Part shown: positions 51,221 to 53,466 of the stretch, piece after piece | Layout: each line of letters begins with the position of its first letter | Position numbering within the stretch: the stretch's first letter is position 1 | From: Escherichia coli | GTDB taxonomy: Bacteria > Pseudomonadota > Gammaproteobacteria > Enterobacterales > Enterobacteriaceae | Direction: 5' to 3' (one strand) | Length of the DNA: 64,000 bases | NCBI RefSeq assembly: GCF_003334385.1 | Contig: NZ_QOWN01000020.1 | Position numbers and translations under genes: made by a program | Notes under the pieces: generated by a model | Database searches by the model: none | What the model saw: the letters and a program-made list of their open reading frames with translations, nothing else | What the model was told of the DNA's origin: nothing

Positions 51221-51229
51221 TCAGCAAAT

Positions 51230-51245
51230 CTGTATATATACCCAG
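51230..51245. promoter_or_regulatory. LexA box in the uvrD promoter
   Basis: CTGTATATATACCCAG matches the CTGT-N8-ACAG SOS-box consensus, about 60 bp upstream of the uvrD ATG. Confidence 0.75.
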
Positions 51246-51303
51246 CTTTTTGGCGGAGGGCGTTGCGCTTCTCCGCCCAACCTATTTTTACGCGGCGGTG
51301 CCA

Positions 51304-53466
51304 ATGGACGTTTCTTACCTGCTCGACAGCCTTAATGACAAACAGCGCGAAGCGGTGGCCGCGCCACGCAGCAACCTTCTGGTGCTGGCGGGCGCGGGCA
51401 GTGGTAAGACGCGCGTACTGGTGCATCGTATCGCCTGGTTGATGAGCGTGGAAAACTGCTCGCCATACTCGATTATGGCGGTGACGTTTACCAACAAAGC
51501 GGCGGCGGAGATGCGTCATCGTATCGGGCAACTGATGGGCACGAGCCAGGGCGGTATGTGGGTCGGCACCTTCCACGGGCTGGCGCACCGTTTGCTGCGT
51601 GCGCACCATATGGACGCCAATCTGCCGCAGGATTTCCAGATCCTCGACAGTGAAGACCAGCTACGCCTGCTTAAGCGTCTGATCAAAGCCATGAACCTCG
51701 ACGAGAAGCAGTGGCCGCCGCGGCAGGCAATGTGGTACATCAACAGCCAGAAAGATGAAGGCCTGCGTCCGCATCATATTCAAAGCTACGGTAATCCGGT
51801 GGAGCAGACCTGGCAGAAGGTGTATCAGGCGTATCAGGAAGCGTGTGACCGCGCGGGCCTGGTGGACTTCGCCGAGCTGCTGCTGCGCGCTCACGAGTTG
51901 TGGCTTAACAAGCCGCATATCCTGCAACACTACCGCGAACGTTTTACCAATATCCTGGTGGACGAATTCCAGGATACCAACAACATTCAGTACGCGTGGA
52001 TCCGCCTGCTGGCGGGCGACACCGGCAAAGTGATGATCGTCGGTGATGACGACCAGTCAATCTACGGCTGGCGCGGGGCGCAGGTGGAGAATATTCAGCG
52101 TTTCCTTAATGATTTCCCCGGTGCCGAAACTATTCGTCTGGAGCAAAACTACCGCTCTACCAGCAATATTCTGAGCGCCGCTAACGCCCTGATTGAAAAC
52201 AATAACGGGCGTCTGGGTAAAAAACTGTGGACCGATGGCGCGGACGGTGAGCCTATTTCCCTCTATTGCGCTTTTAACGAACTCGATGAAGCGCGTTTTG
52301 TGGTTAACCGCATCAAAACCTGGCAGGACAACGGCGGAGCGCTTGCCGAGTGCGCCATTCTCTACCGCAGCAACGCCCAGTCGCGGGTGCTCGAAGAGGC
52401 GTTATTGCAGGCCAGTATGCCGTACCGTATTTACGGCGGGATGCGCTTCTTCGAACGCCAGGAAATCAAAGATGCGCTCTCGTATCTGCGCCTGATTGCC
52501 AACCGCAACGACGACGCGGCCTTTGAGCGTGTGGTGAATACGCCAACGCGGGGTATTGGTGACCGGACGCTGGACGTGGTACGTCAGACATCGCGCGATC
52601 GCCAGTTAACACTCTGGCAGGCATGTCGTGAGCTGTTGCAGGAAAAAGCCCTCGCCGGGCGAGCTGCCAGCGCCTTGCAGCGATTTATGGAATTAATCGA
52701 CGCCTTAGCGCAGGAAACTGCCGATATGCCGCTGCATGTACAGACTGACCGGGTAATTAAAGACTCCGGCCTGCGTACCATGTATGAGCAGGAGAAGGGC
52801 GAAAAAGGTCAGACGCGTATCGAAAACTTAGAGGAACTGGTGACGGCAACGCGCCAGTTCAGCTACAACGAAGAAGACGAAGATTTAATGCCGCTGCAGG
52901 CGTTCCTCTCCCATGCGGCACTGGAAGCAGGTGAAGGGCAGGCGGATACCTGGCAGGATGCGGTGCAGTTGATGACGCTACACTCGGCGAAAGGCCTGGA
53001 GTTCCCGCAGGTGTTTATCGTTGGTATGGAAGAGGGCATGTTCCCAAGCCAGATGTCGCTGGATGAAGGCGGGCGTCTGGAAGAAGAACGCCGTCTGGCC
53101 TACGTTGGCGTAACCCGCGCGATGCAGAAACTGACGCTGACCTACGCGGAAACCCGCCGTCTGTATGGTAAAGAGGTTTACCATCGCCCGTCGCGCTTTA
53201 TCGGCGAGCTGCCGGAAGAGTGTGTGGAAGAGGTGCGCCTGCGCGCCACGGTAAGCCGCCCGGTCAGCCATCAGCGGATGGGTACGCCGATGGTCGAGAA
53301 CGACAGCGGCTACAAGCTCGGCCAGCGCGTACGCCACGCTAAGTTTGGTGAAGGCACCATTGTCAATATGGAAGGCAGCGGTGAGCATAGCCGTTTGCAG
53401 GTGGCATTTCAGGGCCAGGGTATTAAATGGCTGGTGGCGGCATACGCCCGGCTGGAGTCGGTGTAA
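51304..53466 (+). CDS. uvrD: DNA helicase II
   Basis: ORF track begins 51115; trimmed to ATG 51304 (MDVSYLLDSLNDKQREAV), 720 aa. Confidence 0.95.
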   Translation: MDVSYLLDSLNDKQREAVAAPRSNLLVLAGAGSGKTRVLVHRIAWLMSVENCSPYSIMAVTFTNKAAAEMRHRIGQLMGTSQGGMWVGTFHGLAHRLLRAHHMDANLPQDFQILDSEDQLRLLKRLIKAMNLDEKQWPPRQAMWYINSQKDEGLRPHHIQSYGNPVEQTWQKVYQAYQEACDRAGLVDFAELLLRAHELWLNKPHILQHYRERFTNILVDEFQDTNNIQYAWIRLLAGDTGKVMIVGDDDQSIYGWRGAQVENIQRFLNDFPGAETIRLEQNYRSTSNILSAANALIENNNGRLGKKLWTDGADGEPISLYCAFNELDEARFVVNRIKTWQDNGGALAECAILYRSNAQSRVLEEALLQASMPYRIYGGMRFFERQEIKDALSYLRLIANRNDDAAFERVVNTPTRGIGDRTLDVVRQTSRDRQLTLWQACRELLQEKALAGRAASALQRFMELIDALAQETADMPLHVQTDRVIKDSGLRTMYEQEKGEKGQTRIENLEELVTATRQFSYNEEDEDLMPLQAFLSHAALEAGEGQADTWQDAVQLMTLHSAKGLEFPQVFIVGMEEGMFPSQMSLDEGGRLEEERRLAYVGVTRAMQKLTLTYAETRRLYGKEVYHRPSRFIGELPEECVEEVRLRATVSRPVSHQRMGTPMVENDSGYKLGQRVRHAKFGEGTIVNMEGSGEHSRLQVAFQGQGIKWLVAAYARLESV

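Follow-up and report, generated by a model that had tools for sequence, protein, structure and literature searches.

The 20 bp at positions 51228..51247, in front of uvrD, are almost certainly the single LexA operator (SOS box) of the Escherichia coli uvrD promoter, a reading to which we give a probability of about 0.96. The SOS regulation of uvrD has been known since 1983, and the box itself is already described; it is real, conserved, functional and ordinary, and of intermediate strength, not a consensus site. The window, that is, the whole stretch of 64,000 nucleotides that was analysed, is part of the E. coli chromosome: all 5426 complete genomes of this species contain a match to 1.3 kb of sequence around the box, and the RefSeq annotation at the matched region names xerC, yigB (5-amino-6-(5-phospho-D-ribitylamino)uracil phosphatase) and uvrD (DNA helicase II). 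Positions 51185..51310 (126 nt) are identical (100%) to K-12 MG1655, in which uvrD starts at 3,997,983 and the 20-mer occupies 3,997,907-3,997,926, and the 121 nt of 51190..51310 are present with at least 99% identity in 5402 of the 5426 complete genomes. A first-pass annotation of the window had placed a LexA operator before uvrD and had connected it with the induction of helicase II by DNA damage; the matrix score, the conservation across species and the published data all support this assignment, and no evidence contradicting the LexA-operator explanation was found. The features discussed below are collected in Table 1.

Table 1. Coordinates of the LexA box, the promoter, the leader elements and the neighbouring genes in the window
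Feature	Position	Strand	Remarks
LexA operator (SOS box), 20-mer ATCTGTATATATACCCAGCT	51228..51247	+	leave-one-out weight matrix; published identical motif; orthologous boxes
LexA box, 16-bp core CTGTATATATACCCAG	51230..51245	+	between yigB stop and uvrD ATG
uvrD promoter, -35 hexamer TTGGCA	51194..51199	+	inside the yigB coding sequence
uvrD promoter, extended -10 TGaTATAAT	51213..51221	+	hexamer 51216..51221; perfect TATAAT preceded by TG; contains the yigB stop TAA
Leader stem-loop GGCGGAGGGCG-TTG-CGCTTCTCCGCC	51252..51277	+	candidate attenuator/terminator of the uvrD leader
T5 run	51286..51290	+	8 nt downstream of the stem
Probable Shine-Dalgarno sequence of uvrD, GGCGGTG	51293..51299	+	putative assignment
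uvrD CDS (DNA helicase II, 720 aa)	51304..53466	+	ATG at 51304; agrees with the RefSeq annotation of identical DNA and with the listed ORF frame
yigB ORF	50504..51220		stop TAA 51218-51220
dapF/yigA junction	48904-48907		gene overlap, ATGA
yigA/xerC junction	49608-49611		gene overlap, ATGA
xerC/yigB junction	50502-50506		gene overlap, TAATG

The core CTGTATATATACCCAG had been read in the first-pass annotation as a canonical match to CTGT-N8-ACAG lying between the yigB stop and the uvrD ATG. Its position is confirmed, and a gap of 9 nt separates the yigB stop from the core. The match itself holds in part: the invariant half-site triplets CTG-N10-CAG are intact (CTG at 51230-51232, CAG at 51243-51245), but the right arm is CCAG, which makes the site CTGT-N8-CCAG, with seven of the eight specified bases. 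Of the 17 other published LexA boxes used here, 6 likewise have a CCAG right arm. The 10-bp spacer, TATATATACC, is AT-rich and (TA)n-like; the outer flanks are AT and CT, compared with TA and TA in the consensus. The word canonical is thus an overstatement, given the CCAG arm, the AT/CT flanks, a score near the weak end of the known sites and a published heterology index of 8.5.

The bare pattern CTGT-N9-CAG is found at chance level in the window (six occurrences, against 6.04 +/- 2.56 in shuffles). The weight-matrix scan that the first-pass annotation had suggested was carried out with a 20-bp matrix constructed from the 17 LexA boxes of PMC3009722 (Table 4), the uvrD box being left out. On this matrix 51228..51247 scores 18.8 bits and is the top of 128,000 positions (both strands), with the runner-up in the window 4.9 bits lower. 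From the exact score distribution, P is 2.2e-7 per position, corresponding to 0.028 expected matches per window; when the window was shuffled 200 times with its dinucleotides preserved, one shuffle reached the score. The significance of the box is due to its AT-rich spacer and flanks, and not to the bare pattern. When the matrix is symmetrised the uvrD box still ranks first, with 16.4 bits and a smaller margin; our main figures are those of the oriented matrix. The 17 known sites span 17.0-30.4 bits, and the uvrD box is therefore near their weak end. Its heterology index (Berg-von Hippel), calculated on this box set, is 7.8, compared with the published 8.5 (PMC11228462); validated LexA sites have an index below about 13-15, and strong boxes lie at 1-5. 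Three other matrix matches, at 6759, 40514 and 35517 (12-14 bits), are attributed to chance, as the best match of a shuffled window averages 12.9 bits.

Comparison with published LexA regulon sites, also proposed in the first-pass annotation, leads to the same sequence: Tables 4 and 7 of PMC3009722 give the exact 25-mer AAATCTGTATATATACCCAGCTTTT as the LexA motif of uvrD and place it upstream of a UV-induced transcript. The site is the same, base for base, as the known LexA operator of uvrDp and lies in the same MG1655 context, with no difference between the two. uvrD is considered a classic SOS gene in PMC11228462, with the heterology index cited above (after Courcelle 2001) and an induction of about 2-fold after azidothymidine; after ciprofloxacin its mRNA rises to log2 2.2 and the UvrD protein to log2 1.0-1.4 (PMC11002266). 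Reg-Seq mutagenesis describes the uvrD promoter as (0 activator, 1 repressor), with a repressor matrix that matches LexA, and the same study terms the RegulonDB evidence for the uvrD LexA site 'low-evidence' (PMC7567609). The uvrD box also appears in the compilations of the LexA regulon by Lewis 1994, Fernandez de Henestrosa 2000 and Courcelle 2001, to which PMC11228462 and PMC6590174 refer. Induction and LexA dependence are taken here from this literature; a literature search for E. coli LexA binding data (ChIP-exo or ChIP-seq) turned up no set that names uvrD.

Strong LexA operators, such as those of sulA, umuDC, sbmC and recN (TACTG(TA)5CAGTA), share with the uvrD box the CTG-N10-CAG arms, the (TA)n spacer and the overlap with the core promoter and transcription start, which for uvrD is predicted. 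The differences are in the flanks, AT...CT and not TA...TA, and in the CCAG right arm. The strong boxes score 24-30 bits, against 18.8 bits for uvrD, and their published induction is 20- to 70-fold, whereas that of uvrD is about 2- to 5-fold. In Salmonella enterica a single LexA box likewise lies upstream of the orthologous, damage-inducible uvrD gene (PMC8072944; Pang & Walker 1983), and its induction by nalidixic acid is 13.9-fold (PMC8072944). The Salmonella box is 105 nt from the ATG and has a heterology index of 11.48 (PMC8072944), whereas in E. coli 56 nt separate the end of the 20-mer from the ATG; both length and sequence of the leader differ between the genera. Moreover, the heterogeneity of basal uvrD expression in Salmonella is LexA-independent (PMC8072944), which fits weak repression.

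The geometry of the region is that of a repressed promoter. The arrangement TTGGCA-16 nt-TGnTATAAT, from 51194 to 51221, agrees with the consensus at 11 of 12 positions; it is the single promoter-like site on either strand within 50400..51700, and it sits in the last yigB codons. The 20-mer begins 6 nt past the -10 hexamer and would therefore cover the predicted transcription start, at about 51227-51230, and extend to about +20. This overlap of promoter and box is absent from the first-pass annotation. The segment GGTTGGCA is conserved among the Enterobacterales loci, a conservation that is confounded by the coding constraint on yigB, and the -10 element is kept across the Enterobacterales and most Vibrionaceae loci.

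The box was then considered across the gammaproteobacteria. A collection of species-representative genomes was scanned with the first 300 residues of UvrD, yielding 80 loci, which belong to Enterobacterales, Vibrionales, Alteromonadales and related groups. In 60 of these 80 species the 300 nt preceding uvrD contain a box that scores 14 bits or more, and the median best score is 16.5 bits; none was found at this threshold in three control sets, namely the uvrD coding region (0/80), the region downstream of uvrD (0/77) and the region 700-900 nt upstream (0/79). All 44 boxes from Enterobacterales have T-G at positions 4-5 and C-A-G at positions 16-18, 41 of them keep both CTG and CAG, and the spacer varies among A and T alone. 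The next 20 nt of the leader are about 29% identical (ungapped comparison within Enterobacterales). A -10-like hexamer always precedes the box, at a distance of 1-16 nt (8 nt in Escherichia, 11-12 nt in most other Enterobacteriaceae). A YigB homologue is encoded directly upstream in 54 of the 80 loci, including all 48 from Enterobacterales; in Vibrionaceae the box is present and no YigB homologue was found upstream, and the box therefore tracks uvrD and not the junction with yigB.

The region between the box and the gene contains a second candidate regulatory element, a GC-rich stem-loop within the 76-nt leader, which the first-pass annotation does not mention. Its minimum-energy fold has 11 pairs and -17.9 kcal/mol (z = -1.6); this is mildly better than expected, 11 of 200 shuffles folding at least as well. 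No U tract adjoins the stem, and a consensus terminator scan called no terminator on the + strand here because the T run is 8 nt away; under the strict criterion of an adjoining U tract the hairpin is not a canonical intrinsic terminator. An Rfam scan of 50900..51600 (E-value up to 1) returned no family, and the leader is therefore not a described RNA element. The title of Easton & Kushner 1983, as given in the reference list of PMC7835731, speaks of attenuation control of uvrD, and the stem-loop is a candidate for the attenuator to which that title refers; its efficiency as an attenuator is something that we infer. It resembles the attenuators in the 5' UTRs of pyrBI and pyrE in having a GC-rich leader stem-loop followed by a T run, with attenuation named, for uvrD, in that 1983 title. 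It differs from them in the distance of the T run from the stem and in its modest z value, and in that neither a leader peptide nor an alternative antiterminator structure is evident in the uvrD leader. The supplements of PMC7815308, PMC6061677 and PMC3415461 yielded no 5' or 3' transcript ends for uvrD.

In other species the leader is highly variable both in sequence and in length (6-134 nt across the loci). In nearly all Enterobacterales loci the motif CGGTGCC(A/T)ATG is found right at the start codon, while the remaining leader varies. Many Enterobacterales have stem-loops 3' of the box that are unrelated in sequence and often precede a T-rich run; these are missing where the leader is short. 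The hairpin may serve both as a terminator of the yigB operon and as an attenuator of uvrD; the presence of such unrelated hairpins at the same place in many Enterobacterales fits this idea of a shared terminator.

Taken together, these elements suggest the following scheme. uvrD would be transcribed from its own sigma-70 promoter, located in the last codons of yigB. A LexA dimer bound to the 20-mer would compete with RNA polymerase binding or with the formation of the open complex, reducing initiation; since the promoter ends 6 nt before the box, steric occlusion is the simplest mechanism. Upon DNA damage, self-cleavage of LexA stimulated by RecA would free the promoter. Repression would be partial because the box is of intermediate affinity, allowing a substantial basal level of helicase II and a modest induction (2- to 5-fold in E. 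coli). The GC-rich hairpin of the leader would add a second, LexA-independent layer of control through attenuation.

Other explanations of the site concern mainly the genes that precede it. The description of dapF-yigA-xerC-yigB as chained by ATGA and TAATG overlaps is correct at all three junctions, and the first-pass annotation had concluded from this chain that read-through into uvrD would be filtered by the operator. An unlikely but conceivable extension of the operator reading is a double role, in which LexA represses the promoter and, together with the hairpin, forms a two-step barrier against read-through from the yigB operon; if this were true, SOS induction would also open read-through from the operon into uvrD. 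Far less probable is that LexA acts at this box mainly as a roadblock for polymerases arriving from dapF-yigA-xerC-yigB. The four upstream genes are translationally coupled, the 9 nt between the yigB stop and the box contain no terminator-like structure and the adjacency of yigB and uvrD is conserved in 48 of 48 Enterobacterales loci; read-through polymerase must therefore cross the operator. However, the near-consensus promoter stops 6 nt short of the box, a layout that is classical for repression of initiation, and the box is kept in Vibrionaceae and in other groups in which YigB is not upstream (YigB in 54 of 80 loci, the box in 60 of 80). In addition, a site of intermediate affinity would be a poor obstacle to an elongating polymerase, and read-through has a more obvious barrier in the leader hairpin immediately 3' of the box. 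Our literature search found no paper on roadblocking at this site or on co-transcription of yigB and uvrD. We found no support for the read-through filter. Since uvrD has its own promoter adjoining the box, the box persists without an upstream yigB and its affinity is moderate, roadblocking would be a side effect at most; read-through is more likely to be stopped by the hairpin.

More remote still is the view that the AT-rich block TGTATATATA owes its conservation to a role in the promoter, for example as an alternative -10 or as the initially transcribed region, its likeness to a LexA site being incidental. The spacer does have -10-like hexamers (TATATA) preceded by TG, and the block lies within the core promoter region. 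Nevertheless, the invariant positions are the triplets contacted by LexA (44 of 44 boxes) while the spacer varies among A and T, and the matrix that detects the block was built solely from other LexA operators. The distance between the -10 and the box, which ranges from 1 to 16 nt between species, is incompatible with a fixed element, and the site behaves in Reg-Seq as a repressor site (PMC7567609). A chance match without function is effectively refuted, for although the bare pattern is at chance rate in the window and about two sites of such a score are expected per 4.6-Mb genome on an independent-base background, 0.028 are expected in the window and this one lies exactly at the promoter, the box is kept by 60 of 80 species and absent from all three control sets, and published induction and mutagenesis data exist.

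The LexA operator of uvrD also serves as a positive control, as a textbook SOS operator was recoverable from sequence alone. Within 64 kb the bare CTGT-N9-CAG pattern carries no information; the full weight matrix, taken together with the promoter context and the conservation, is decisive. For the biology of E. coli, the site accounts for a moderate induction of helicase II by DNA damage, combined with the high basal level of this enzyme for mismatch repair and nucleotide excision repair.

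The entire uvrD promoter is embedded in the 3' end of yigB, the gene directly upstream, and its -10 hexamer contains the yigB stop codon TAA (51218-51220); as a consequence, this short stretch is under a double constraint, since it must serve both as coding sequence and as promoter. The position of the LexA operator (SOS box) relative to this promoter was compared between positions 51222..51229 of the window and loci L005-L016 of our gammaproteobacterial set. The distance from the -10 hexamer to the CTG of the box is 8 nt in Escherichia (E. coli and E. albertii), 11-12 nt in most other Enterobacteriaceae and 1-3 nt in Pantoea and Erwinia. 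The uvrD operator has moved relative to its promoter over evolution, yet it has been retained.

Features of the uvrD region, other LexA matrix matches in the window, and loci with variant or missing boxes
Feature	Position or loci	Remark
uvrD promoter, TTGGCA-16-TGnTATAAT	51194..51221	11/12 consensus match
GC-rich stem-loop and T run of the uvrD leader	51252..51291	-17.9 kcal/mol
CGGTGCC(A/T)ATG motif	51293..51306 and orthologous loci	adjoins uvrD start codon
Next-best LexA matrix match	6759..6778	13.9 bits
Next-best LexA matrix match	40514..40533	13.4 bits
Next-best LexA matrix match	35517..35536	12.1 bits
Left-arm-variant boxes	L051, L054, L057, L061, L064-L066, L068-L071, L074-L076, L080, L081	mostly Vibrionaceae
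Shewanella loci without box	L052, L053, L059, L060, L062, L063, L067, L073	

The three next-best matches to the LexA matrix in the window are probably due to chance, because their scores equal the level of the best match in shuffled windows (mean 12.9 bits); only the lowest-scoring of them has CTG-N10-CAG.

Outside Enterobacterales, 17 of 22 uvrD boxes have ATGT, TTGT or GTGT as left arm in place of CTGT, and their right arm is intact (CCAGTA or ACAGTA); this box, found mostly in Vibrionaceae, is a conserved half-degenerate operator. In Shewanella, all eight loci lack a LexA-type box scoring more than 11 bits in the 300 nt that precede uvrD. The gene may therefore be outside the SOS regulon there; alternatively, the start or the promoter of uvrD may be located elsewhere.

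In the E. coli leader, a stem-loop that was absent from the first-pass annotation lies 3' of the SOS box and 5' of the ATG. It corresponds to the attenuator that has been reported for uvrD, and its T5 run lies 8 nt 3' of the stem, departing from the canonical arrangement in which the U-tract adjoins it.

Across Enterobacterales (L002-L049) the leaders, taken from box to ATG, range from 9 to 134 nt and are not conserved in sequence, apart from the motif at the uvrD start, which is probably the Shine-Dalgarno region (GGCGGTG). In many species, a stem-loop of unrelated sequence sits directly 3' of the box, and A and T runs often flank it (as in L025, L030 and L031); in five loci (L005, L015, L029, L032 and L049) the leader is short and the hairpin absent. 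These sequence comparisons suggest that leader structure has been repeatedly gained, lost or replaced in Enterobacterales, where it may act as a terminator of the yigB operon, as an attenuator of uvrD, or as both.
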